DNA of 64,000 nt from NCBI GenBank assembly GCA_964538855.1, contig CAZIEY010000001.1:82811-146810 (forward strand). The letters run 5' to 3'. Under the pieces are notes generated by a model, which saw nothing but the letters and a program-made list of their open reading frames with translations, had not been told where the DNA came from and did no database searches. A program made the position numbers and the translations under genes. Source of the stretch: an uncultured Candidatus Saccharibacteria bacterium (GTDB lineage Bacteria; Patescibacteriota; Minisyncoccia; Phycocordibacterales; JAACPR01). Position 1 is the stretch's first letter, and every line of letters starts with the position of its first letter. Positions 15,367-53,118 of the stretch are shown here, piece after piece.

Positions 15367-17952
15367 CTAATTTACTGATGTGCTTAATGAATATGTATTT
15401 ATAAACGCCTGAGTGTGTGGACCAAGAACTCCTGTCCCTGATGTCAGACCAGCGGGTTCAAGAATACTTTCTTTGTTTGCTTCTTGGAATTTCTTGAGGG
15501 CAATTTGAGTTAGTATACCAAAATACGATGTCTCAGAACCCCTTGAACCCGGGCCTGAAGTATTTATCGTAAATCCGTTTGCGTTAAGGAATTTTTGAAG
15601 CTCTACAACATCTGGATCTGTCACCTGAGGACGAAGGATTTTATTAAAAATAAACTTTGTATTGGTTGTTGATGTAACCTCTATCGGCGCTATGTTATTT
15701 TCTGGTTCAACTTCGCTTTGTACCACAACTGATATTGATTGTTGATCTGTAAATTGATTTGGGTATTGATTTATGAGAACGTTTGCTGCCTCGATATTGC
15801 CCATGTCGGTTAAATTCCTAACCCTTCTTGCAACAGAAGAACCCGGGGATCTTCTTGGTGTATCTTCCTCAACTACAGGTTCACTTTCTGTGGTAAAACT
15901 CCAAGTTGTGGCGTCAGAAATTCCTGCATAACTATTACCACTCGTGTCATCAAATGCCGTCGCATCGATTTGCACATAATACTCTGTTTCATATTCAAAA
16001 TCCGCAGTTGGATTTATTGTAATTATCGTTGTACCTGTTCCTGTTACTAAAAGTCCAGTGACGTCCATCGCCTGTACTAATGAATCATCACTTGATTTAT
16101 AAAGAGAAATATTTCCTGTCTCAACGTCTACTATTTCATCAAAAGTAATAACCAAATTTGCATCAAGGTCAACATCGATCGCTCCATCAAGAGGCGAAAG
16201 ACTAGATACTGCAGGAACACCAGTGTCGGCGGTGGTAAAACTCCACGAAGTCGTATCTGAAATTCCTGCATAACTATTACCACTCGTGTCATCAAATGCG
16301 GTCGCGTCGATTTGGATATAATATTGAGTAAAGCTAGATAATACTGTATTCGGATTTATAGTAATGATTGTTGTTCCGGTACCAGTGACAAGACCACTCG
16401 TCACATCGATGGTTTCAATAGTGGAATCGTCGCTTGATTTTTTAATCGTAATGTTTCCTGTTTCCACATCGACCGCCGTATCGAATGTCAAAATCAAGTT
16501 CGCTGTTGCAGAAACGCCTGTTGCATTATCGGCTGGCGATAATGTCGAAATAATCGGTGCAGTCGTATCAATCACCAACGCCTTGTTTGCGGCGAGGTTT
16601 GTCGTCGGTACAAAATTACTCATTGCATTTGCTGATGCGTCTGCGATCGTTCCAGAAATACTTGAAACAGTCAGGTCAGCCGACGTATCACCTGCTTGAA
16701 CGGTATAGTTACATGTTCCTGTTGTAGTTGCAGTCACTGAAAAAGTACATGTTCGATCAGTATCTCCCGTTTCCAATGTAACAGTCACATCTCCCGTCGA
16801 GGTTACTACTTCGGAAAATGTGACGTCAATATCAATTACTTCACCAACGGTGTAAGAACCATTTGTTTTATCGGATGAAACATTAGTAATTGTCGGCGCA
16901 GTAACATCAGAATAGTCTTGCCATAACAGATATGGGTATCCATCATTATTTACCCCATCAATAGCCCAAATAGTACTAAAATCCCAACCGGAATAGGTTC
17001 CTTGGGTTTTCATTTGTGATGTTGTTTTACCTACGACACCTGCCCCACCACCGGATGTGGCGCGCCCAGATGTTTCGGTATCCCAATACGAACTTGTCGT
17101 GTTGGTATAGCTTGATCCAGCCAGACCTCCGACATTACTCGGAAAACTGCCAGACACCATCGTTATTGACCCTGTGGAGTACAAATTTGTTTTAGTACCA
17201 CTACTATAATCATTTCCATACAATCCTCCAACAGATCCTTGGTTAGCAACACTGTATGTCAATACAATATTACTGCGTGAATAAGAATTGTTAATCGTCC
17301 CACCACTATACGCTTCACCAGCAAGACCTCCAAAACAACAAGTCGCAGCCCCCGTCGGAGTGAAGTAGACTGTGTTATCTGAATATGTTTGCGTCATGGA
17401 TCCATAATTTGAACCAACTAATCCACCGGTGCGTTGGAAACCAGTGATTGAACCATCAACAACACTCACTTTTGATATGGCACCAGTATTTGACCCTACT
17501 AATGCTCCAACACCCACATTTCCCGTGACTACAGCATTGTTTAATAATAAATTTGAAATAGTTGCACCACTGGCTACATATCCAAAAAGTCCAACATTGT
17601 TTGTTCCTGAACTGTTGTAATATAAATTCGAAATGGTTTTGAAATCACCGTCAAACTTTCCGTAAAAATACGAACCACTTGTTCCAATCGGTGTCCATCC
17701 GGTTCCTGTATTATAAGGGGAAACGTTTAAATCAATATCAGCATCCATTTTAAAATACTTCCCTGAATTTCCTGCACCTAGACAATTTGAAATCGCAGCA
17801 AGTTCAGTCGGTGTGCTAATTAAATAGGGTGCTCCTACGGTTCCTGATCCGCCTGTAATACTATCTCCGCATGCAGCAAAAGCCTCTGGTGTCATCACCG
17901 CAAATAACACAATTGCAATAATAAAATAAAGCCATCTCTTCATAGAAAACAT
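15367..17952 (-). CDS. large cell-surface protein: signal peptide, GLUG/beta-helix repeats, two tandem Ig-like (Big) domains, C-terminal peptidoglycan-binding domain
   Basis: Two ~115 aa near-identical repeats (…LSPADNATGVSATANLILTFD… / …LSPLDGAIDVDLDANLVITFD…); G-rich GGLVGSNYG/GGLAG repeats; C-terminal PDVVELQKFLNANGF… PG_binding_1-like; start chosen at MFSMKRW (17952) directly abutting a TGTTATAAT -10 element. Confidence 0.7.
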   Translation of the reverse strand: MFSMKRWLYFIIAIVLFAVMTPEAFAACGDSITGGSGTVGAPYLISTPTELAAISNCLGAGNSGKYFKMDADIDLNVSPYNTGTGWTPIGTSGSYFYGKFDGDFKTISNLYYNSSGTNNVGLFGYVASGATISNLLLNNAVVTGNVGVGALVGSNTGAISKVSVVDGSITGFQRTGGLVGSNYGSMTQTYSDNTVYFTPTGAATCCFGGLAGEAYSGGTINNSYSRSNIVLTYSVANQGSVGGLYGNDYSSGTKTNLYSTGSITMVSGSFPSNVGGLAGSSYTNTTSSYWDTETSGRATSGGGAGVVGKTTSQMKTQGTYSGWDFSTIWAIDGVNNDGYPYLLWQDYSDVTAPTITNVSSDKTNGSYTVGEVIDIDVTFSEVVTSTGDVTVTLETGDTDRTCTFSVTATTTGTCNYTVQAGDTSADLTVSSISGTIADASANAMSNFVPTTNLAANKALVIDTTAPIISTLSPADNATGVSATANLILTFDTAVDVETGNITIKKSSDDSTIETIDVTSGLVTGTGTTIITINPNTVLSSFTQYYIQIDATAFDDTSGNSYAGISDTTSWSFTTADTGVPAVSSLSPLDGAIDVDLDANLVITFDEIVDVETGNISLYKSSDDSLVQAMDVTGLLVTGTGTTIITINPTADFEYETEYYVQIDATAFDDTSGNSYAGISDATTWSFTTESEPVVEEDTPRRSPGSSVARRVRNLTDMGNIEAANVLINQYPNQFTDQQSISVVVQSEVEPENNIAPIEVTSTTNTKFIFNKILRPQVTDPDVVELQKFLNANGFTINTSGPGSRGSETSYFGILTQIALKKFQEANKESILEPAGLTSGTGVLGPHTQAFINTYSLSTSVN

Positions 17953-18016
17953 GGACATATTATAACACAATATTTTTTCCAAACTTAAATAAAACCCAAA
18001 TTCTCTGCCTCACGTT

Positions 18017-18379: not shown

Positions 18380-18418
18380 CAAGGCCTGCAGGTTCCGTCC
18401 TGCAGGACCTGTTTGTTT
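18380..18418. terminator. bidirectional intrinsic terminator (palindromic CCTGCAGG stem, loop TTCCGT)
   Basis: 8-bp perfect stem; T-tract GTTTGTTTTT on plus strand, U-rich tract on minus; ends the NYN gene (minus) and any plus-strand short transcript. Confidence 0.6.
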
Positions 18419-18919
18419 TTATCTCATAGATAATTTGTGTTGCAAATGATTTAAATACTCTATTAAACCACCGGCTTCGAATTTCAAAAGTTTTGCGCAT
18501 TTGTGCACGTTGGGACTCAAGACACACCCTAACTTATGACCATGTCGCAAAAAGCGCACTGTCGAATAGAAATCTCCATCACTAGTCACCACAATCGCTT
18601 TATCGTAATTACGTAATCTAGACATAATGTATACAATCATATCTCCGTCACAATTTCCTTTTATATTTCTATGTATATCAATCACGACGGGTTTGAAAAC
18701 AAGAATATAGCCACATCGCCGTAACAAATTATAAAACTCTGTATTCGTTTCAATAAAACCAATAAAGACAAATACTTTATCGATTTTGTACTTATCCTTG
18801 AGATAAACAAAGAACTTTTTCCAGTCTAATTTCCAACCCATAGCGACAATCCCCATCGTCAAATTCTGCGCGTCTATAAAAGCAAAATTGCGTCGCTGAT
18901 TTTTCATCATGCCACGCAT
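18419..18919 (-). CDS. NYN-domain (LabA-like) predicted RNA nuclease
   Basis: NYN hallmarks: FIDAQNL (first Asp), NIKGNCDGDM, VVTSDGDF. Confidence 0.7.
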   Translation of the reverse strand: MRGMMKNQRRNFAFIDAQNLTMGIVAMGWKLDWKKFFVYLKDKYKIDKVFVFIGFIETNTEFYNLLRRCGYILVFKPVVIDIHRNIKGNCDGDMIVYIMSRLRNYDKAIVVTSDGDFYSTVRFLRHGHKLGCVLSPNVHKCAKLLKFEAGGLIEYLNHLQHKLSMR

Positions 18920-21663: not shown

Positions 21664-22659
21664 TTAATAAAACTCAATGTTACGCAAGAGATACAAAATA
21701 ATTGCTCGCACATCCTTTTCGTTCCGTTCACCATCAAGCAAAATAATTGCGATAGTGCGCGACTCGGAATCCGAACCCAAGGGTAATTTGAAAAGCGCCA
21801 CGAGAGTGTGATTCGCTTCTTCTGTATAACCATTCTTCCCACCCACATATTTCGAGTCATTCACAAACACATTATTGTTATACCAAAGGTGCGATCCAAC
21901 GCGGTACATTCTCTCGTGCGTCATATCAATAATTTCCGGATAGCTACGATACACATACTGTGCGAGGCGCAACAAATCATCCGCGCTCGAGACATTTTTT
22001 TCTGACAAACCGCTCGGGTCGGAAAAACGCGTATTGCGCATTCCCAAATATTCTGCCTCCGAATTCATTTTGGAGATAAAATCATCTCGCCCTGCAACTT
22101 CAGCCAAAACTTCTGCGGCGTCATTAGACGATTGCAACAAAAGTGCACGCATCAATGCACTCACCGTGAGATTTTCTCCGGCACGCAAACCACCTTGTGT
22201 GCCATACGTCGAAACCGCTGAATACGAAACGCGCGTAGTCGCACCCTGATCAATATTTTTCAAAGCAACGAGCGCAGTCATCAATTTAGAAACTGAAGCG
22301 ATTGGGTGTTCAACAAATGAATCATAACTTTTAATTATTTCCCCAGTATCGAGATCTGCAATCAAATACGATCCGGCAGTTAATTTTGGGAAAGCCATGT
22401 CGGCATGTATCACGTGATATCCTCCATTTTTAGTTACATAGCTAATCGCACGACGAATAAAATTTGATTCGGTATTTGGTAGAGCAGCATCTTGGTCCTG
22501 TGTACCATTCTCGTATTGCTCAACAACCTCGGAATTACGATCTTCAAACAAGGATGAAACAAAATACATAGTAAGCCTCGCGAGACTTACTACACCATAC
22601 CCCGCAACTATCCCCACAATCATCGTTGTAAAAAATGTAGTGTATAATTTTGCCCTCAT
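21664..22659 (-). CDS. D-alanyl-D-alanine carboxypeptidase (peptidase S11, PBP5-like)
   Basis: SxxK (ASVSK), SxN (QSSND) and KTG-like motifs; N-terminal TM anchor. Confidence 0.8.
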   Translation of the reverse strand: MRAKLYTTFFTTMIVGIVAGYGVVSLARLTMYFVSSLFEDRNSEVVEQYENGTQDQDAALPNTESNFIRRAISYVTKNGGYHVIHADMAFPKLTAGSYLIADLDTGEIIKSYDSFVEHPIASVSKLMTALVALKNIDQGATTRVSYSAVSTYGTQGGLRAGENLTVSALMRALLLQSSNDAAEVLAEVAGRDDFISKMNSEAEYLGMRNTRFSDPSGLSEKNVSSADDLLRLAQYVYRSYPEIIDMTHERMYRVGSHLWYNNNVFVNDSKYVGGKNGYTEEANHTLVALFKLPLGSDSESRTIAIILLDGERNEKDVRAIILYLLRNIEFY

Positions 22660-24137
22660 GAAAGTTCCTCGACGTACTGCGAAGTTACCACCCGTTCATT
22701 ATCGCGACGCACATTGTCGGCTAGCTTTTTCAAAAACTTTACAATAGAGATAAGATACGTTCCATCAATACTTGGACCTGAAAATTTCGCGGCGACGTCC
22801 CGAATAACTTGGTATGTAAAAAATACATTTTTCTCAGATTCAATCATTTTAACTTGATCCTTCAGAATGCGATGCAGGGTTTGATTATCAATTTTAGAAA
22901 ATTGAATCTTTTCGAAATGTCGAACAAATTTTGTATGCGGTGCAATTGTTGCATGATATTCATCTGTATCGACTACTGCGATAATATTCAAATCGGTCGA
23001 CTTCAAGAAACTATCCATCAATTCCGAAGCATCGAGCCCTAATGCATGAGCCTGCTCTATAAAGACTGAAGTTTGGGGCAACACCAAAATTACTTTTCCA
23101 TCTCTATGCGCTTCTTCAAGAACGCCGCGGATAATACGCTCGAACTCGTCTTTGGTTTTCACTGCATCCAAAAATTTTTCGGAACTCAAAAAATAAATTT
23201 CCTTACCCTCAATCGCATACAACGCGTTACCTCGTAAAATAATTTGTCCGAGTGCCGACACAATTTCCATCCCCGCCTCGATGGTCGGAGCAACCAACAA
23301 AACATTACGGCCACGTTTATGAGCCAGAACGTTCTCCACTTCCTGCGCCTCCTTTTTATAAATACGCCACTCTTCTCCGAGACTTGTGTACAGACGACTT
23401 TTGTAAATTGGCAGACAATATGTATCAAGAATGGAAAATTGAGTATACGTCCACGTCTTGCCGATACTCGGGATCCGTTCCAATCGATCACGTGATAAAA
23501 AGAGTGCCCGCTTTCTCTGTTCATACAAAATTTCATTTGCCCATTGTAATGCACCCAAAAAGGTCTTTTCATCGACAAAATTAATGTCTAAAAAATATCG
23601 CAATTCAGAGTCACGTGTATACAACGCGGAACCATACAGCACAGGTGTGGTCTCGCCTCGCTCTGTTTCAATAAACTCGACACTTACTTCACGAAGTTTT
23701 TTTCGATCCTTGTTTTTAATAAAATACGTAACAGATGCGTCTGGAATATTTAACCGATCCAATGTAGTACTACCAATTTCCGACTCGAAGAAACTTTTGA
23801 CCACGTCATTTTCATCTGACCAAAAAACAAGCTGAGCGACCTCAAAATCGACGAGCGTTTTTCTGAAATAGTATGACAGATAAAACCATTCGGTAAGATA
23901 TGCAAATAATGTTGCAAGAAAAATGAGGAAAAATCCACCGCGAATGCGATACATATCCGTGGTCACATTATCACCCATGACAATATGCGTAAAAAGCATC
24001 GCTATCAGCGCAGTAATTGTTGAAACCAATAAAATGGTTCGAAAAATCTTTCTGCTCCTGTATGGAAAATGTCGTTCCATAAGCAAAGCCGGATATAAAT
24101 CTTCACTATGTTTTCTGAGTTGGGCAAACGTTATCAT
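22656..24137 (-). CDS. membrane-anchored protein with degenerate (catalytically dead) ClpA/ClpB-type AAA+ D1-like domain
   Basis: Two N-terminal TM helices; C-terminal half aligns block-by-block to ClpB NBD1: LGEEWRIY…VLAHKRGRNVLLVAPTIEAGMEIVSALGQII vs GRDEEIRR…[24 protein letters not shown] (Walker A GxxGxGKT lost), VILVLPQTSV vs VILFIDELHT (Walker B DE lost), TDEYHATIAPHTKFVRHFEKI vs [22 protein letters not shown]. Stop overlaps the PBP5 start (ATGA). Confidence 0.5.
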   Translation of the reverse strand: MITFAQLRKHSEDLYPALLMERHFPYRSRKIFRTILLVSTITALIAMLFTHIVMGDNVTTDMYRIRGGFFLIFLATLFAYLTEWFYLSYYFRKTLVDFEVAQLVFWSDENDVVKSFFESEIGSTTLDRLNIPDASVTYFIKNKDRKKLREVSVEFIETERGETTPVLYGSALYTRDSELRYFLDINFVDEKTFLGALQWANEILYEQRKRALFLSRDRLERIPSIGKTWTYTQFSILDTYCLPIYKSRLYTSLGEEWRIYKKEAQEVENVLAHKRGRNVLLVAPTIEAGMEIVSALGQIILRGNALYAIEGKEIYFLSSEKFLDAVKTKDEFERIIRGVLEEAHRDGKVILVLPQTSVFIEQAHALGLDASELMDSFLKSTDLNIIAVVDTDEYHATIAPHTKFVRHFEKIQFSKIDNQTLHRILKDQVKMIESEKNVFFTYQVIRDVAAKFSGPSIDGTYLISIVKFLKKLADNVRRDNERVVTSQYVEELS

Positions 24138-24138
24138 A

Positions 24139-24516
24139 TTATTGGAAGAAACTTATTAAACCGGCTCCGAAAAGACCTAGAGACAAAAATGGAAGAGCGA
24201 TCCAAAAAATAAAAACTGCAGTCCAAAATACGAATGTCAAAATGAATGAAAGAAGCCCACATAAAATAGTTGCGATTCTGACTAGAAATCCGACGAGTCC
24301 CACGACAATAGTGACGAGCACCATTTCCCGATCCTTCTCATCAGACCCTGCCTCTGGTCGAGAACGAAATGGTTGAAAAATAGTCTTGAATAAGAGTTTG
24401 ATAGAAAAGAAGTTATACGAAAAGAACACAATATTTCTATACACGGCCAAAATATGAGCAAAGGCAGTGGTGTAATGCCACGAGAGATAATATGCAGGAA
24501 TTAAAAAAGCTTTCAT
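24139..24516 (-). CDS. small integral membrane protein
   Basis: 125 aa, 3-4 TM helices; start abuts the downstream gene. Confidence 0.4.
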   Translation of the reverse strand: MKAFLIPAYYLSWHYTTAFAHILAVYRNIVFFSYNFFSIKLLFKTIFQPFRSRPEAGSDEKDREMVLVTIVVGLVGFLVRIATILCGLLSFILTFVFWTAVFIFWIALPFLSLGLFGAGLISFFQ

Positions 24517-24553: not shown

Positions 24554-25393
24554 CTAAGTTTTCGGATCAAGTGGCGTGGTGATTTTATAAAAAACCTTGT
24601 TACCGAATCGCAAATCAATATATTGTAAATTTTGAAATTGCGCCTTATTAATTTCCTCTTGCTCGATCACGATTTTCAGGTTTTCATAAATCTGGTCCGC
24701 CTCGTTATTTTTCTCTACGAGCAGATATGGCCCCTTTACGGTATGAATTGCAAACGTTTCAAAATCCTCGGTTTCAATCGTCTTGACGACAATGTGTAGT
24801 TGAGGAACTTTTTGTACGAAATTGATTAAATTATTAAAGTTTTCTATTGGCAAGTAATGAGTGCCGACGATAGTCGTTGTTGCGACATCACCAAATAATT
24901 TTGGAACCTCAAAAAAATGAGCGTCAGTCTCTGGTGCAAAAAATTGACCTTTCCTATTTACTACATAACAAGGCTTGGATTCGGTACGCGCGTCACGACC
25001 ACACCACTTTGCGACCACTTCGTGCTCTTTTACTACAATATTGAGGTGATGGAGAGATTCTCGGTTTACAAATACTTCAGAAATAGATGAATTATTCGCG
25101 AGCAAACGTGTGCGAATAGAAGTTGACGGGACGAAAAGGAAATTTCTTTTTGAAAAAAGACCAAAATATTTTTCATCGAGCACGCCATTAATTTCCTTCA
25201 GCAAATCTGAGGACGCTGCAAATGTAGCCTCGGAAACAGTAACTGATGAAATCGAAAAAGATGGATGATTAAACCAGAAGACAAATCCATAAAGACAAAT
25301 CAAAGTGCACACCACCCAAAAAAACATTTTGAGCATCAGGAGATTTTTTTTCTTTTTCTCGAGTTGCGGTGAACGGTATTGATTTTTAGACAT
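24554..25393 (-). CDS. FtsQ/DivIB-like cell division protein (TM + POTRA-like)
   Basis: Single TM then ISSVTVSEATFAASSDLLKEINGVLDEKYFGL… pattern as in the FtsQ POTRA region; tentative. Confidence 0.45.
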   Translation of the reverse strand: MSKNQYRSPQLEKKKKNLLMLKMFFWVVCTLICLYGFVFWFNHPSFSISSVTVSEATFAASSDLLKEINGVLDEKYFGLFSKRNFLFVPSTSIRTRLLANNSSISEVFVNRESLHHLNIVVKEHEVVAKWCGRDARTESKPCYVVNRKGQFFAPETDAHFFEVPKLFGDVATTTIVGTHYLPIENFNNLINFVQKVPQLHIVVKTIETEDFETFAIHTVKGPYLLVEKNNEADQIYENLKIVIEQEEINKAQFQNLQYIDLRFGNKVFYKITTPLDPKT

Positions 25394-32456: not shown

Positions 32457-32500
32457 CGCATTATATAAAAAATAATATGCGCTACAGGTTCGACTTTTTT
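32452..32500. terminator. bidirectional intrinsic terminator
   Basis: CTGTAGCGCAT…ATGCGCTACAG 11-bp stem flanked by A/T tracts; serves convergent genes 32028 (+) and murE (-). Confidence 0.7.
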
Positions 32501-33806
32501 ATTTCACCAGCTTTTGCAACTCTTCCCTCACCACAACTCGATCATCCCAGGGCGCAGATTTTTCACCAATCATAATCGACTGCTCCGCACCTTTACCTGT
32601 GATAAGCACCACATCTCCAGTTCTCGCTAATGTAAGCGCCTGATGAATCCCCGCGCGGCGATCTTCAATGACAAATAAATCTTTGCCACGAACTTTTCCA
32701 AACTTTTCAGCCACAATTGCAATATCCTCCAAAATTTTCTTCGGATCATCTTCGTATGGATCGACATTTGTCACCACCACAAAATCCGCCATCTTCGCAG
32801 AAAGCTCGCCCATAATTGCGCGCTTTGCCGTATCACGACCACCACCTTCGGCACCAAGTGCAATAATTGTTTTCGCACCAGCCGGTTTCATATTATTCGC
32901 GGTCTGCAACACATTCGTAATGCTTTGCTTTTCATGAGCATAGTCCACGAGCACGGTGAAATCTTGTCCTTCAATAATTTTTTCCATGCGACCAGGAATA
33001 ATTTTCAAGTCCAAAAGACCACGCGCAATTTCCGCATCGCTCGCCCCAAAAAGTCGCGCAATAATAATTCCGGGCATTGCATTGTACACATTAAACTTCC
33101 CTAAAATGCCAAGCTCGAAATTCGCAGAGTCGACACGGAATTTCACACCAGAACCAATTTCCTGAACCGCAGTCGCCACGACATTCGCCGGTTTTGAAAT
33201 TCCAAAGGTGATTTTTTTATCAGCTTTATGATTCAAATAGAAATCTGCGTGCTCACTATCAGCATTTGCAATGATAACTTTTTCAACACGTTTGCCCGAA
33301 ATCTTTTTCTGATGTGACGACAAGGCCGCAAACATCTTTGCCTTCATCTGTTTATATTTTTCAAAACTTCCATCATGCGAAGGCAAATGTTCCGGAGACA
33401 AATTCGTAAACACACCGATATCATAATAAATTCCAGTGTGACGAAATTGCTTGAGCCCCTCCGAAGTTGTCTCGACAATACAGAACTTGCACCCAGCACG
33501 AACCATCTCGGCCATTTTCTCTTGGATAACAAATCGCCCCGGCATCGTCATGTGATATTTATTCAAAAATTCTTGCTCTCCGATGCGGATATTTGCAGTG
33601 GTGATAATGCCAGTTGTATGACCACTTGCCATTAAACACGACCAAATAAAATTAATAGTGGAAGTTTTACCCTTGGTCCCCGTCACACCAATCACAATCA
33701 TTTTTTTCGAAGGAAATCCGAAATAAATTGTCGCACACATCGCGAGCATATAGTGATACAAGTACAAAAGTTGCTTTGGTAATAATTGTTTAATGAGTTT
33801 TTTCAT
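32499..33806 (-). CDS. murE: UDP-N-acetylmuramoyl-tripeptide synthetase (MurE-like Mur ligase)
   Basis: GVTGTKGKTST P-loop, DYAHEK…GGRDTAKRAIMG, NVDPYEDDP (DNPR-like) motifs; lacks an N-terminal domain. Confidence 0.65.
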   Translation of the reverse strand: MKKLIKQLLPKQLLYLYHYMLAMCATIYFGFPSKKMIVIGVTGTKGKTSTINFIWSCLMASGHTTGIITTANIRIGEQEFLNKYHMTMPGRFVIQEKMAEMVRAGCKFCIVETTSEGLKQFRHTGIYYDIGVFTNLSPEHLPSHDGSFEKYKQMKAKMFAALSSHQKKISGKRVEKVIIANADSEHADFYLNHKADKKITFGISKPANVVATAVQEIGSGVKFRVDSANFELGILGKFNVYNAMPGIIIARLFGASDAEIARGLLDLKIIPGRMEKIIEGQDFTVLVDYAHEKQSITNVLQTANNMKPAGAKTIIALGAEGGGRDTAKRAIMGELSAKMADFVVVTNVDPYEDDPKKILEDIAIVAEKFGKVRGKDLFVIEDRRAGIHQALTLARTGDVVLITGKGAEQSIMIGEKSAPWDDRVVVREELQKLVK

Positions 33807-34885
33807 CGTAGTAATGATTTGAAATATCGACGGAGATTATACATATGATACCAAAATGAATTCGTAACTACATCAAAAAATTCAGAGCGAATTACAGCCT
33901 CTCCTCCAAATTTCTTTTTGAAGGTTGTGATACCGTCCCAACCCTTGTACGTATCTGATTCAGCAGAAATTGCGCCGAAACTATAAAAATCGCAGCCGAG
34001 TTTTTTTGCGTGGCACACTGCGCGCCACTGTGCCAAATACGTCGGCATGCGGTTTCGTTCGTCGGCACTCGATCCGCCAAAGACGTAATTCGCCACCCCA
34101 CTAAACACAATAACTAAATCAATCGCCAAAACTTTTTCACCGAATTTCGCAACAGAAATATAGGAATCTTTCGAATCAAGGCCTGCAAAAACATTCTGAT
34201 AGTATTCTTTGGAATGGAGATGGAAATTATTTCGTTTCGCAGTATCCACCATTAATTGATAAAAGATGTCGAAGTATTTCCCAAAGTTTTCGGTCACAAT
34301 TTCTGAAGTGATTTGTTTTCGTTCAGCGAGACGAATCGAGTAACGAGTCTTTTCATGCATGTCCATCAAAATTTCATTTTCTGTTTTGTCCAATTTCAAA
34401 AACCATTCTACGCGAGGCTGAAAATATGCCGAGTGATAGGTGCAACGTGGTGACTTGGTAAAAAGTTTCGATAACACATCCGGCGCGATTGGTGGTGAAA
34501 AATCAAGTCGAGCAAAAACCGCGTTCTCTGCGCGGGCAATTTTTTGCAACTCTTGCCTTAAAAAGACAAGGAGTGGTTCCGAAACGCTTTTCACGACCGG
34601 CCCGAGTGGTACATACAAATATGTTTTTCCAAACACGAGTGGAAATCGTAATATCTGGAAATATGCGACCGGACCAGTATCATCAGAAATTAAAAAACGC
34701 TTTACCTCTCGACCCAAATTTTTCTGCCAAGATCCATACACATCGGCCTGAGTAAATGGTACATGTTGCGAAAGAGTACTCGGATCAAAATGTTCCTTGT
34801 CGCTCAGGGCCTTAATAATAAACGTGTTCATGGTGAATAAAAAATAATTTACGAGCTGATGCCTTGTTATAGAATAGTTTATCAA
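33803..34885 (-). CDS. FemAB-family peptidoglycan interpeptide-bridge aminoacyltransferase
   Basis: FemAB/FemX fold pattern (…FQILRFPLVFGKTYLYVPLGPV…, …VFGGSSADERNRMPTYLAQWRAV…); adjacent to murE. Confidence 0.6.
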   Translation of the reverse strand: MINYSITRHQLVNYFLFTMNTFIIKALSDKEHFDPSTLSQHVPFTQADVYGSWQKNLGREVKRFLISDDTGPVAYFQILRFPLVFGKTYLYVPLGPVVKSVSEPLLVFLRQELQKIARAENAVFARLDFSPPIAPDVLSKLFTKSPRCTYHSAYFQPRVEWFLKLDKTENEILMDMHEKTRYSIRLAERKQITSEIVTENFGKYFDIFYQLMVDTAKRNNFHLHSKEYYQNVFAGLDSKDSYISVAKFGEKVLAIDLVIVFSGVANYVFGGSSADERNRMPTYLAQWRAVCHAKKLGCDFYSFGAISAESDTYKGWDGITTFKKKFGGEAVIRSEFFDVVTNSFWYHMYNLRRYFKSLLR

Positions 34886-42832: not shown

Positions 42833-45178
42833 TTACCTCACCTCCCACCCACTCTTCTTCATCTCGCCGGCAATGCCATCCATAATCGCGTTCACTTCCG
42901 CATCCGTCAGAGTTTTTTCGAATGATTGGAATACGAGACGGAATGCATATGAAGTGCGACCGTCTTTTTTGAATACGTCGAACAAGCGATTTTTAATCAT
43001 CAAAGGGCCGGCGTTTTTCGTAATGAGCGCAAGCACGTCCGATTCCGCCACCGCATCAGGCACCCACACCGCAACGTCTCGAATCATAAAAGGATACGCT
43101 GAGATCGGCGCGTATGTAACCGTCTCCACCGGCACAAGCGGTTCGTATGAAATATCGCCAATCGACGCCACGACTTTTTCCAAATCAATTTCCACGAAAA
43201 GCGGTGTATCTGAAATTTCCGTAGTAACTAATTTCACCCCCAGAACTTCTGAGAGCTTCGATAAGGTATCCTTAATGGTCTCTTCTGGTCTTGGTTTTTT
43301 GAAACCATTGCGATTCGCCACACAAATACCAAGCATCACGCGTTCTATACCCTTCTTTGGAAAGACTTTACCAATTTCAAACACACGCACCTGATCAAGC
43401 ATCAAGAAATCAATATTGTAGAGATTTTGAGGGAGTGTTGTACCAATACCATGAGCAAGCGTCGTTCGCAAAAACGCCTTGTCTTCTGAAATAGGATTCT
43501 CAGGAGCAATCACACCAGTCGGCACGAATGTGTACGTGTAGACTTCGGAAAAGCCAAGGCCGTTGAGCGTCGCTTTTATTTTCTGCGACACCGCATACAT
43601 TTTGTTTTGTGCAGGGGCAAAATCCATCTGCGAGATCGCAGTTTCTTTGACGTGTTCGTATCCGAGGACGCGACCAACTTCTTCGATAACATCCGCGCCA
43701 GTTTTAATATCCAATCGTTCAACAGGCACCGTCAATGCAAATCGATTTTCATTCGGAGCAAAAAATCGACCGTACCCTACAATATTTTGAAAGCGCGCAC
43801 TGTCAGCAATTTTTTCTTCGACAACGCCAGCGTCATTCAATTCAGTCGCATGCAACACTTTACCATCGCCAGTATAAAATCCAACATGATCCACGCCATG
43901 GACCACATCAGTGCCTTTGGCAAACTCGACGCTCTTGTAATCAATTTTATGTTTCAAATCGCCAGTGTTTGCAAAAATCACATCGCCTGGTTGCATGTCA
44001 GCTTGCGAAATTTTTTCTGCGTACACAAATTGGTCGACAGACATGCGAGGCACCGACAAACCAGCGAGCGCTGATACGTACGCAGTGAAACTCGAACAAT
44101 CAAATGCATTCGGTGCGTCAAAAAATACACTTGAAGCCCACTTGTATGGAACTCCTACCAATTTTTGTCCTTCAGAAATAACCACCTCGCGAGGATTCAC
44201 AATTACATATTCAAAACCGAGACGGTCGAATGCGCCAGCAATTTCTTTTTCAGAATATGCAGTACCGAGCAACGCGTTGACTTCACGCACCGACACACCT
44301 GTGCGATATGGTCGCCATGTTTTTGGATAATGTTCGGCCTTGAGCGACACCGCAGTCACATCGGTCGCCGCATATTTCAAAATCAATTCAGTCGCCATAT
44401 CCATCGCGAGATCCGCAATCGCAGGCGTCACTTCGTTTTCGAAACGCTTTGATGAGTCGGTCATCACGCCGATTTTGCGCGACGTTTTTCGCACATATGT
44501 CGGATTGAAATTGGCAGACTCCAAAATGATGCGCTTTGTCGCACCGTCGACTTCTGGAATTTTTCCGCCCTTGATGCCGGCAATTGCGAGAGGTGTGTCA
44601 TTGTCATAAATTACCACCGCATCCATATTTAATTTCACCTGCTTGTTATCAAGCGTCGTGATTTCTTGTTCGTCTGTAGCGCGACGTACCACAATATTCC
44701 CCGTGATTTTATCCGCATCAAACGCGTGCATCGGTTGCCCCACCGCAAACATCACAATATTTGTGATATCGACAATGTTGTTAATTGAGCGTTGACCGAG
44801 AGCTTCGATTTTCGCTTTCAGTTCAGGAGCGCTTTCAGCCACGCGGACATTCGTAATTTCACGAGCCACATATCGGCGGCACAAATCGGTTTCGACGGAT
44901 AAAGTAAAGCTTGGCGCAAAAGTACCAGCATGCAGTGGAATCTCGCGCTTTTTTAATTTCAAGCCCGTCATCATTGCAATTTCGCGTGCAATTCCGTCGT
45001 GCGACAAACAATCGTGTGCGCGGTTCGGCAACACATCAACATCAATAATCCAATCATCGCCGTGCGCGGTCACTTCTTCAATTTCAAAAGCCTTGAGCGA
45101 AATCATAGACGCCAAATCCTCGGCCGGTGGCAACGGCGCATCGAAATATTCTTGAAGCCATTTGTATGAGACGAGCAT
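42833..45178 (-). CDS. pheT: phenylalanine--tRNA ligase beta subunit with inserted NlpC/P60-like domain
   Basis: B3/B4, B5 (VSVREVNALLGTAYSEKEIAGAFDRLGF), catalytic-like core and C-terminal FDX-ACB domains; ~150 aa insertion (residues ~325-478) carrying NlpC/P60 motifs (GVPYKW…FDCSSF…PGDVIF…HVGFYTGDGKVLHA). Confidence 0.9.
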   Translation of the reverse strand: MLVSYKWLQEYFDAPLPPAEDLASMISLKAFEIEEVTAHGDDWIIDVDVLPNRAHDCLSHDGIAREIAMMTGLKLKKREIPLHAGTFAPSFTLSVETDLCRRYVAREITNVRVAESAPELKAKIEALGQRSINNIVDITNIVMFAVGQPMHAFDADKITGNIVVRRATDEQEITTLDNKQVKLNMDAVVIYDNDTPLAIAGIKGGKIPEVDGATKRIILESANFNPTYVRKTSRKIGVMTDSSKRFENEVTPAIADLAMDMATELILKYAATDVTAVSLKAEHYPKTWRPYRTGVSVREVNALLGTAYSEKEIAGAFDRLGFEYVIVNPREVVISEGQKLVGVPYKWASSVFFDAPNAFDCSSFTAYVSALAGLSVPRMSVDQFVYAEKISQADMQPGDVIFANTGDLKHKIDYKSVEFAKGTDVVHGVDHVGFYTGDGKVLHATELNDAGVVEEKIADSARFQNIVGYGRFFAPNENRFALTVPVERLDIKTGADVIEEVGRVLGYEHVKETAISQMDFAPAQNKMYAVSQKIKATLNGLGFSEVYTYTFVPTGVIAPENPISEDKAFLRTTLAHGIGTTLPQNLYNIDFLMLDQVRVFEIGKVFPKKGIERVMLGICVANRNGFKKPRPEETIKDTLSKLSEVLGVKLVTTEISDTPLFVEIDLEKVVASIGDISYEPLVPVETVTYAPISAYPFMIRDVAVWVPDAVAESDVLALITKNAGPLMIKNRLFDVFKKDGRTSYAFRLVFQSFEKTLTDAEVNAIMDGIAGEMKKSGWEVR

Positions 45179-51738: not shown

Positions 51739-53118
51739 TTAATCGTCAACTTCTTCCAAGAAATTCAGCTGTTCTTGGAAAGTCGCAGCGTGCGACAAGA
51801 CGCTATTTGCATAACCAAGTCCAAGCGTAGCCCAAGCGCCTCCTGCATAATACCGCGCTGCTGCTTGCTGTTCTGCACTATAACCGCCCGCCGCTGCACC
51901 GAGATCTTTTACGAAAAGGCCCGTTGCCATAAAGGCGTGCTCTGGTAGCCATGGATTTGCAGCTGAAATTCCGAGCGTTGTCGCGACACGTGCCGCATAA
52001 CCGATCCACGTTGAAGGAATAAACTGTGAGGGACCCATCGCACCTCCGTACCCAACCGAAAGTGGGCACGATACAGGTGTCTGATATGGATCTAATCCAA
52101 GCGCTCGAGTAATCGTCAAGAATGGAGTCACATCTCGATCCGGTTTCATCACTTTGGCAAACGGTGTACCAGTATTTTTACCGATTCCCGCGCCCGTTTC
52201 AGTATTCGATAGGTAACACTGACCGACATTAACCCCGAGATTTGATTCTTGTTTCAAAATACCCAAAATAAATGCGGCGCGCACCCCGGTAAATTTCGAA
52301 GCTTTATTCGCATATTTTACCGCATCTCCAAACGAAATCCCCTCCTGATCGCGCAACTTAAAAAGCTGAGCCCTGATTGATGCCGCCTTGGCATTTTTCT
52401 GTTGGATGACAGTTTGATAATTTGCCTCGGTTTGTTTACTGATCGATAGAAGCCCTGCTTTTTCCTGCTTTTTAATAGTCACCGTACGCTTATCTTGTTC
52501 AATTTCTGCTTTCACATCTTGCTCCTTATTTTGTTTAATTTGTAACTCTTGCTTCTCTTTCTCGTTTTGTTCTTGAATAACTTTCACTTCATCGATTAGG
52601 TCATTCAGCTGTCTCTCTACTACAGTGAACTCATCAAATTCCACGAAAAAATCTGACAAGGTTTCGTTGCCCAGCAAAATTTCTGGCAGAGACATATTGT
52701 CTGCCTCGTTCGTCTTGCGCATTAGATCAATGAGGTTTTTTTTACTACGATTAATTTTTTCTTCAAGTTGGTTAATAGTCTGCTCTTTTAATTCAATTCC
52801 AGACATGAGATTTTTGATTTCGATATTTTTCTTTTGAATAACAAGCTCGGCTTGTTTAACTTGATTTGTGAGGACAGAAATATCGCGTGAAATGGTGGCG
52901 GTTTGACTCTGTTGCTGTTTGAGAGATTCATTCAAGACACGAGCCTCTTCCTCGATTTGAGCAAGTTCTTTGCGTAGTTGAGCTTCCTGTTGCGGCGTAA
53001 GAGCAGCAAATACCTGTAAAGGCAGGATATTAAACACAAAAGCCACAAGAACGAGCATTAGTGCCGGTTTTTTAAGAATAGCAAAAATCATCTTCTTTAT
53101 TATAGCAAAAAAACTCAT
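51739..53118 (-). CDS. secreted coiled-coil protein with C-terminal lytic-transglycosylase (SLT)-like domain
   Basis: Signal peptide, ~250 aa heptad-rich region, then ILKQESN…GAMGPSQFIPSTW resembling SLT catalytic Glu and GxMQ blocks. Confidence 0.5.
   Translation of the reverse strand: MSFFAIIKKMIFAILKKPALMLVLVAFVFNILPLQVFAALTPQQEAQLRKELAQIEEEARVLNESLKQQQSQTATISRDISVLTNQVKQAELVIQKKNIEIKNLMSGIELKEQTINQLEEKINRSKKNLIDLMRKTNEADNMSLPEILLGNETLSDFFVEFDEFTVVERQLNDLIDEVKVIQEQNEKEKQELQIKQNKEQDVKAEIEQDKRTVTIKKQEKAGLLSISKQTEANYQTVIQQKNAKAASIRAQLFKLRDQEGISFGDAVKYANKASKFTGVRAAFILGILKQESNLGVNVGQCYLSNTETGAGIGKNTGTPFAKVMKPDRDVTPFLTITRALGLDPYQTPVSCPLSVGYGGAMGPSQFIPSTWIGYAARVATTLGISAANPWLPEHAFMATGLFVKDLGAAAGGYSAEQQAAARYYAGGAWATLGLGYANSVLSHAATFQEQLNFLEEVDD

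Follow-up and report, generated by a model that had tools for sequence, protein, structure and literature searches.

A membrane-anchored Clp D1 pseudo-ATPase that has repeatedly lost its D2 domain at a conserved Paceibacterota locus

Relation to known AAA+ systems

Paceibacterota (candidate phyla radiation, or CPR/Patescibacteria) are abundant, uncultured bacteria with reduced genomes, of whose envelope and division machinery little is known. Among AAA+ proteins, NSF (D2) and Pex1/Pex6 (D1) retain a degenerate tier beside an active one. Degenerate tiers are also found in Yta7 (AAA2; PMC9898759) and in chloroplast FtsHi (PMC10500165), and LAP1 and LULL1 are inactive, membrane-anchored AAA+-like activators of Torsin (PMC4358337, PMC4999309). 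Here we describe a gene in a 64,000-nucleotide stretch of an uncultured bacterial genome (contig CAZIEY010000001.1, positions 82,811 to 146,810; hereafter the window, 64 kb) that encodes a membrane-anchored protein of 493 amino acids (aa) with a complete Clp/Hsp100 D1 fold and without any ATPase site. A family of ~815-aa proteins found across Paceibacterota occupies the same chromosomal position, and the window protein is its D2-truncated ortholog; locus-level comparison confirms at least three independent losses of D2, each with the break at the D1/D2 boundary. An earlier reading of the DNA letters, made by a model without database searches (the sequence-only reading), had proposed an inactive AAA+ scaffold of conserved fold; the dead fold held up, whereas the implied stand-alone invention gave way to a truncated member of a larger family.

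The large and small D1 subdomains of the pseudo-ATPase align in order and superpose with those of ClpA, ClpC and ClpB, and its long relatives follow a ClpA-like order (N-domain-like region, D1, D2, no M-domain). Unlike these Clp proteins, the pseudo-ATPase has an N-terminal transmembrane (TM) hairpin and no D2, and is devoid of Walker A, Walker B, the pore-loop Tyr and the second Arg finger, while D2 of the long relatives has neither the GYVG pore loop nor the IGF/IGL loop for ClpP. The protein descends from Clp/Hsp100 class-I proteins, yet most of the features by which membership of that class is recognized are missing.

By analogy, the closest functional counterparts would be the dead tiers of two-ring AAA+ machines and LAP1/LULL1. 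Like NSF, Pex1/Pex6, Yta7 and FtsHi, the long forms keep a non-hydrolysing module for assembly or structure beside an active one; those systems always keep the active tier, whereas the short forms repeatedly dropped it and kept the dead tier alone. LAP1 and LULL1 resemble the pseudo-ATPase in having a membrane-anchored AAA+-type fold from a Clp-related branch, with no nucleotide-binding motifs and no ATPase activity of their own (PMC4358337, PMC4999309). LAP1, however, donates a strictly conserved Arg finger to Torsin, whereas the equivalent Arg is variable in the pseudo-ATPase family; LAP1 is also eukaryotic, lumenal and single-pass, and no candidate for a Torsin-like partner ATPase was found within the window. 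FtsH and Msp1/ATAD1 likewise place an AAA+ module at the cytoplasmic membrane surface by means of an N-terminal anchor (Msp1: PMC12793716), but these are active single-ring ATPases with aromatic pore loops, FtsH with a protease in addition, whereas the module described here is a Clp-type D1 that has neither an active site nor a pore loop.

A complete Clp D1 fold without an ATPase site

The gene and its parts, all on the minus strand, are as follows.

22656..24137 (-): membrane-anchored Clp N-D1 pseudo-ATPase, short D2-less form, 493 aa (open reading frame (ORF) with ATG start)
24063..24137 (-): conserved N-terminal peptide MITFAELxxKS..LYPAxLLE, aa 1-25, two short helices (alignment, model)
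23865..24062 (-): TM hairpin, aa 26-91 (model helices, hydrophobic stretches in the sequence)
23493..23864 (-): eight-helix domain (2 x 4 helices), aa 92-215 (AF2, Foldseek)
23442..23504 (-): N-D1 linker motif, aa 212-232 (conservation scan, alignment)
22893..23351 (-): Clp D1 large (alpha/beta) subdomain, catalytically degenerate, aa 263-415 (profiles, PDB, Foldseek)
23268..23291 (-): APTIEAGM in place of Walker A GEPGVGKT, aa 283-290, no GK[ST] (phmmer alignment to ClpB/ClpC1)
23073..23093 (-): VILVLPQ, Walker B strand in which PQ replaces DE, aa 349-355 (alignment, family table)
22659..22892 (-): D1 small (lid) subdomain, aa 416-493 (alignment, model)

The NCBIfam ClpA model TIGR02639 matched at E=8.3e-12, pairing aa 263-454 with model positions 193-385 (that is, D1), and weaker matches were obtained for ClpB, TssH/ClpV, ClpK and ClpG. 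All of this lies far under the NCBIfam equivalog cut-offs (44 bits versus 993 for ClpA; 31 versus 1232 for ClpB). Searching PDB sequences with phmmer returned exclusively D1 regions of Clp/Hsp100 proteins (E=1e-8 to 1e-5), namely ClpB 1jbk, ClpC1, ClpC, ClpA, Hsp101 and Hsp104, and a Foldseek search of the PDB with the AF2 model placed ClpC, ClpC1, ClpB and ClpA on top (E=4e-13). These three approaches confirm the Clp-type D1 that the sequence-only reading had assigned to this ORF, on which a Pfam scan alone is silent (no significant match). PADLOC defence models matched neither the pseudo-ATPase nor the small TM protein encoded beside it.

Modelled as a whole with 17 homologs (AF2; pLDDT 85, pTM 0.75), the protein consists of two hydrophobic helices, eight helices (98-220), a five-stranded alpha/beta domain and a helical lid, in that order. 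The strands of the D1 large subdomain are predicted at 278-283, 313-317, 349-353, 384-390 and 408-412, and the lid helices at 418-436, 442-451, 459-478 and 486-492. Residue-by-residue alignment bears out each of the substitutions that had been named from the letters (GEPGVGKT to APTIEAGM, DE to PQ, and the lid stretch TDEYH…RHFEKI): the Walker A region reads llvAPTIEAGMeiv, Walker B changes from ilfiDE to vlvlPQ, and the sensor/lid stretch TLDEYR...RRFQKV becomes TDEYH...RHFEKI. The D1 pore-loop Tyr is replaced by Thr (KYRGEFE versus KTKDEFE in the phmmer alignment). The Walker B strand is also the family's most conserved 10-mer window.

The two N-terminal TM helices that had been proposed correspond to long hydrophobic helices at aa 26-57 and 59-90, which AF2 models with confidence as a hairpin: TM1 (~31-53), a short outer loop, and TM2 (~69-91), which ends in YLSYYF, a motif among the most conserved 10-mers of the family in a conservation scan. 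Helices are also modelled at aa 4-10 and 12-23, within the N-terminal peptide. A positive cluster (RSRKIFR) precedes TM1 and, by the positive-inside rule, aa 1-25 would be cytoplasmic. As shown by the model together with this rule, the predicted topology of the anchor is an N-in/C-in hairpin.

The region between hairpin and D1, described by the sequence-only reading as a ~200-aa unknown domain, probably represents a Clp N-domain that has diverged strongly, an assignment that is unproven. Its 2 x 4-helix layout and its position directly before D1 are compatible with a Clp N-domain, and it is also modelled with eight helices when taken alone (AF2 pLDDT 80). About 25 of the 40 top PDB matches of the isolated domain in Foldseek were N-domains of Clp, Hsp104 or ClpT, none of them significant (E>=0.68, TM-score 0.35-0.45), and full-length Foldseek alignments span ~390 columns on ClpC/ClpB chains that include the N-domain. 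Sequence comparisons gave nothing significant, whether by Pfam (no Clp_N, PF02861, match in the pseudo-ATPase), by single-sequence and profile/HMM searches of the PDB with the domain, or by hhalign against ten Clp_N sequences and of repeat against repeat (probability 2-8%). In these non-significant alignments, the Clp repeat motif (…L…GI/D…) matches both halves of the domain in register.

The linker that follows has the family consensus WWSRExLxRIPSIGKxW and reads LFLSRDRLERIPSIGKTW in the window protein. Together with the Walker B strand, it is among the family's most conserved stretches in the conservation scan, with L219, I222, G226 and W229 invariant in the family alignment. It lies outside both the eight-helix domain and the ATPase core, in a part of the model with lower confidence (pLDDT 60-71). 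Its conservation suggests that the RIPSIGKxW linker is a candidate partner-binding motif.

Repeated loss of D2 and conservation of the short form

We found 21 close homologs, short and long alike covering ~90-100% of the query. The short ones (~492 aa) are 36-100% identical to the window protein and include intact orthologs of the same length at 79, 66, 43 and 36%; the long ones (~807-826 aa, 28-35% identity) carry C-terminal AAA_2 and ClpB_D2-small domains. At alignment columns ~500-524, the window protein ends in …VVTSQYVEELS* at exactly the point where the long forms continue …VITREDILELVSIKTGIPQG… into D2. An exhaustive search with a hidden Markov model (HMM) of the short form revealed at least 227 family representatives, counted as clusters at 50% identity, that match from residue ~1 at E<1e-30. 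The distribution of their lengths has two peaks, at 475-525 aa (32 representatives) and 775-850 aa (113). A profile search with the short-form alignment for further homologs gained generic Clp proteins only. The source names of members include Paceibacterota, Nomurabacteria, Vogelbacteria and 'Patescibacteria group', plus one metagenome-assembled genome from GTDB labelled Saccharibacteria. The window protein displays the hallmarks of the family: the N-terminal peptide, the hairpin with YLSYYF, the RIPSIGKxW linker, the degenerate D1 and the VFFTYQ lid motif. Literature and full-text searches returned no description of this family. None of the labels that its members now bear ('hypothetical', 'AAA family ATPase', 'ClpA') describes them; for example, one long homolog is named 'AAA family ATPase [Candidatus Paceibacterota bacterium]'.

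D1 is degenerate across the whole family, and its Walker A varies among the 168 sequences compared. It is near-canonical in distant long forms (GEPGVGKM, GPPGVGKM and, once, GPEGSGKT) and unrecognizable in the window clade and its nearest long relatives (APTIEAGM, SPTSEAGL, APTTNIGM). The most divergent long form of the first search (P0021, in the region L007:8001-11800) likewise has a near-canonical D1 Walker A, GKDGVGKM. Walker B reads DD, DN, EN, PN, PH or PQ and almost never DE, and the D1 pore-loop Tyr is missing family-wide. The Arg-finger pair is variable in D1: RR of ClpB corresponds to RH in the window protein and, in the short forms, to R/K/Q/A followed by variable residues. Since the D1 motifs are degenerate in short and long forms alike, D1 was dead before D2 was lost.

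The D2 of the long forms retains GPTGVGKTE, LLLDEFEK, the sensor-1 N, the NRFD arginine and GAR in alignments with ClpA/ClpB. A six-residue deletion takes out its GAPPGYVGY pore loop (L003:8001-10478, L005:8001-10424, L008:4514-6994 and L007:8001-10442), there is no IGF/IGL ClpP-docking loop, and the long forms have no M-domain. Judged by these motifs, neither the long nor the ancestral protein is likely to thread substrates as a classical unfoldase does or to work with ClpP.

We compared the gene contexts of long forms (L003/4, L005/6, L007 and L008) and short forms (L001/2, L009, L010/11, L012 and L013) with that of the window. All share a co-directional core array of serS, ftsQ, a small TM gene, the AAA gene, in some cases an S11 peptidase gene, dus and dnaX. 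ParB, topA and dprA lie upstream of this array, and these genomes are collinear all the way from ParB to DnaX. The conserved synteny in relatives on which the sequence-only reading had staked its interpretation is thus present, the arrangement recurring down to ~28% identity; a GTDB scan for related loci contributed a single locus, L009. In short-form loci, the next gene begins -4 to +37 nucleotides (nt) from the stop codon; in L012 and L009 this gene is Dus, and the window, L001, L010 and L013 have S11 at this place. Because the next gene starts right at the short-form stop, D2 is absent rather than split off locally, and tblastn with a long form found no D2 elsewhere in the window.

Short and long forms are interleaved in the family. 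One short form (P0025) is 54% identical to a long one (P0014), and the nearest neighbours of several short forms, by identity, are long. On a neighbour-joining tree of 493 shared columns, Fitch parsimony gave 11-14 changes between long and short, a count in which some singleton short forms may be frameshift artefacts, and most replicates gave a long root. In 25/25 bootstraps, long forms intervened between the window clade, P0025 and a seven-member clade around P0109. Repeated dropping of the active ring, with the dead ring, N-domain and anchor kept, bears on the origin of pseudo-ATPases such as LAP1/LULL1 and FtsHi.

A search for free-standing D2 genes returned mostly fragments at contig ends (for example, L016) and one N-D1/D2 pair. 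In this pair (L015:5481-8011), a 507-aa N-D1 ORF overlaps a 336-aa D2-only ORF by 4 nt. The same contig has other split genes, with a glutamate dehydrogenase in three pieces and an M16 peptidase in two, and the N-D1/D2 split probably reflects assembly frameshifts, not a genuine split gene.

The short gene is functional and under purifying selection. Relative to the 66%-identical L001 ortholog, the proportion of nonsynonymous differences (pN) is 0.21 and that of synonymous differences (pS) 0.76, which is saturated, and pN is uniform over TM, N-domain, D1 and lid. Independent assemblies contain the same or a nearly identical protein (a cluster of four), with NCBI contigs of 388 and 88 kb among them. 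D1 is conserved about as well as the remainder of the protein in pairs of short forms, and the relative conservation of TM and N-domain is higher in short-short than in long-long pairs of similar divergence.

Neighbouring genes and proposed role

Three neighbouring genes on the same strand matter for what follows.

24139..24516 (-): small polytopic membrane protein, 125 aa, of an unnamed conserved family (junction, HMM)
24554..25393 (-): FtsQ homolog, 279 aa, with N-terminal TM, POTRA and FtsQ/DivIB C domains (ortholog profile, Pfam)
21664..22659 (-): S11 DD-peptidase with N-terminal TM anchor (Peptidase_S11 E=1.5e-42)

The small polytopic membrane protein is the sole invariant neighbour among the loci examined. 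An HMM of its orthologs detects the gene directly before that of the N-D1 protein in 13/13 distinct loci, and the pair is retained even in L014 and L015, where the wider context differs. In the window, its TAA stop is followed by 1 nt and then by the ATG of the pseudo-ATPase, and the gaps are ~-4 to +11 nt where they were read from gene calls. Across the compared loci the gene encodes ~128 aa with the motifs YYLSWHYT...FSIKxLxxTLFxPxxR, and the protein has no relative in Pfam, NCBIfam or the PDB.

Judged from its sequence, the 279-aa protein upstream of this pair is a genuine FtsQ, in keeping with the FtsQ-like gene noticed earlier. A profile of its orthologs matches PDB FtsQ over aa 85-264, covering the POTRA and beta domains (E=4.4e-6), and POTRA_1 is detected in 8/9 orthologs (best 1.6e-7) and FtsQ_DivIB_C in 5/9. 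The gene is present in 10/12 loci, over lineages at 28-35% identity.

On the other side, the junction ...TCATGAGGG shows that the TGA stop of the pseudo-ATPase and the ATG of the S11 gene share ATGA, a 4-nt overlap; both this overlap and the 1-nt gap had been described correctly from the letters. The AAA-S11 start/stop overlap recurs in other loci, and S11 lies directly downstream in 7/11, being missing in L007, L009, L012 and L015. In L007, small ORFs with neither a Pfam match nor similarity to S11 take the place of the gene. The enzyme conserves SxxK and SxN, and KNG replaces KTG in 7/7 orthologs (window, L001, L003, L005, L008, L010 and L013). Its earlier designation as a PBP5-type carboxypeptidase was too loose: the protein has an S11 domain behind an N-terminal TM anchor with a variable linker, no match to the PBP5 C-terminal domain was found, and its best NCBIfam model is a PbpG-type endopeptidase.

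The genes serS, dus and dnaX stand in the same array with equally short spacers, and a promoter/terminator scan of 18-27 kb gave counts not above those of shuffles, so the limits of the operon are not defined by the scan. The sequence-only reading had called this a division or peptidoglycan gene cluster, which the packing of ftsQ and S11 supports and which is overstated in view of serS, dus and dnaX and of the loci that have no S11. With those three genes packed as tightly, and the segment collinear, adjacency alone is no proof of a role in division or peptidoglycan metabolism.

Because D2 was lost repeatedly, the selected core function would reside in TM, N-domain, linker and D1 and would need no ATP hydrolysis by this protein. 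We propose that the pseudo-ATPase is an ATP-independent membrane scaffold or adaptor, anchored by its hairpin and facing the cytoplasm, that would be co-translated and in complex with the small polytopic membrane protein encoded just upstream. It would probably oligomerize through its Clp D1 fold, as the D1 rings of ClpA/ClpB do, and at the inner membrane face its N-domain and RIPSIGKxW linker would be exposed for binding cytoplasmic or TM parts of envelope proteins. Candidates for such binding would be the products of the flanking genes, the bitopic FtsQ and the S11 DD-peptidase with its N-terminal anchor, and in long-form lineages D2 would add ATP-driven remodelling or release. A scaffold role in envelope or division processes is probable, and one as divisome or peptidoglycan adaptor is plausible but unproven; the full proposal, in which the scaffold works with the small membrane protein, likely contacts parts of FtsQ and the DD-peptidase, and is served by D2 remodelling in long forms, has in our estimation an even chance of being right. 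More tentatively, the two proteins could form an unrecognized Paceibacterota-specific inner-membrane complex that acts from the cytoplasm to control division that depends on FtsQ and/or wall maturation that depends on the DD-peptidase, the family then representing a repeated conversion of an AAA+ motor into a scaffold and a bacterial parallel to the origin of LAP1/LULL1. A syntenic Clp derivative with a constant small membrane partner beside ftsQ is, in any case, a candidate component of the Paceibacterota envelope or division machinery.

Several observations weigh against this proposal. With serS, dus and dnaX also in the array and all collinear, the adjacency to ftsQ and S11 may be frozen gene order, and neither neighbour is constant (4/11 loci have no S11 and 2/12 no FtsQ). 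The ancestral activity is uncertain, since D2 of the long forms is without the GYVG pore loop and the ClpP-binding loop. The relative conservation of D1 and lid is 0.98 and 0.82 in short-short pairs versus 1.10 and 0.97 in long-long pairs, which hints at relaxation after D2 loss, albeit mild and with no decay of the short gene. Finally, a D2-type or other AAA+ partner may be encoded beyond the 64-kb window.

The inconstancy of FtsQ and S11, set against a small TM partner found in every locus, is also what would be expected if that partner and the N-D1 protein were a general module for quality control, insertion or tethering of membrane proteins. Such a module would be what is left of an FtsH/Msp1-like extractase whose motor has died, with adjacency to ftsQ and the DD-peptidase gene accidental in streamlined genomes. 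The pair occurs in unrelated contexts in L014 and L015, the equally short spacers of serS, dus and dnaX point the same way, and the arrangement of hairpin, membrane-proximal N-domain and D1, and distal D2 resembles FtsH/Msp1 rings (for Msp1, PMC12793716). Ancestry from a threading extractase is doubtful, however, given that the aromatic pore loop is missing from both rings, those of the long forms included, and chance adjacency sits poorly with an FtsQ neighbour kept at 28-35% identity and with recurrent AAA-S11 start/stop overlaps. We regard this explanation as possible but doubtful.

A somewhat different role would be that of a trans-acting regulator, or half of a split machine, in which the short form docks on a separate AAA+ ATPase (a free D2, ClpB/ClpX or FtsH) and tethers or activates it at the membrane. 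The precedent is LAP1, a motif-less membrane-anchored AAA+ fold that activates Torsin, a Clp-D2-like ATPase (PMC4358337, PMC4999309). At the position of the D1 Arg finger, one Arg remains in the window protein (RHFEKI versus RRFQKV), but this residue is conserved neither in the short clade (R/K/Q/A) nor in the long forms. Likewise, the N-D1 ORF overlapping a D2-only ORF in L015 would suit a split machine, but that split is probably a sequencing artefact on a contig riddled with split genes; the remaining D2-only matches are contig-end fragments, and the window holds no D2. This makes a trans-acting role unlikely.

That the short ORF has no function, and is merely what remains of a decaying long gene or an error of assembly or annotation, might be suggested by the loss of D2 and of all catalytic residues, but we reject this as highly improbable on conservation and selection, given the near-identical proteins in independent assemblies, the intact orthologs down to 36% identity, a pN far under the saturated pS, and a clean truncation at a domain boundary with the stop overlapped by the next gene.

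Elsewhere in the window, other cell-wall genes lie at 32499..34885 (-), 15367..17982 (-) and 51739..53118 (-); they encode a FemAB-family transferase overlapping a Mur ligase, an 871-aa protein with Big_5 and PG_binding_1 domains, and an SLT_2 transglycosylase-like protein. An NYN-domain (RNase-like) gene (18419..18919, -; E=1.2e-12) sits between dnaX and tRNA-Gln and is followed at 18385..18406 by a GC-rich hairpin, a perfect 8-bp palindrome, which is scored as a terminator on either strand. The gene for the PheRS beta chain (42833..45178, -) encodes B3_4, B5, tRNA_synthFbeta and FDX-ACB domains, with an NlpC/P60 Pfam match (E=7.8e-14, aa 342-452) as an odd insertion between B3_4 and B5.

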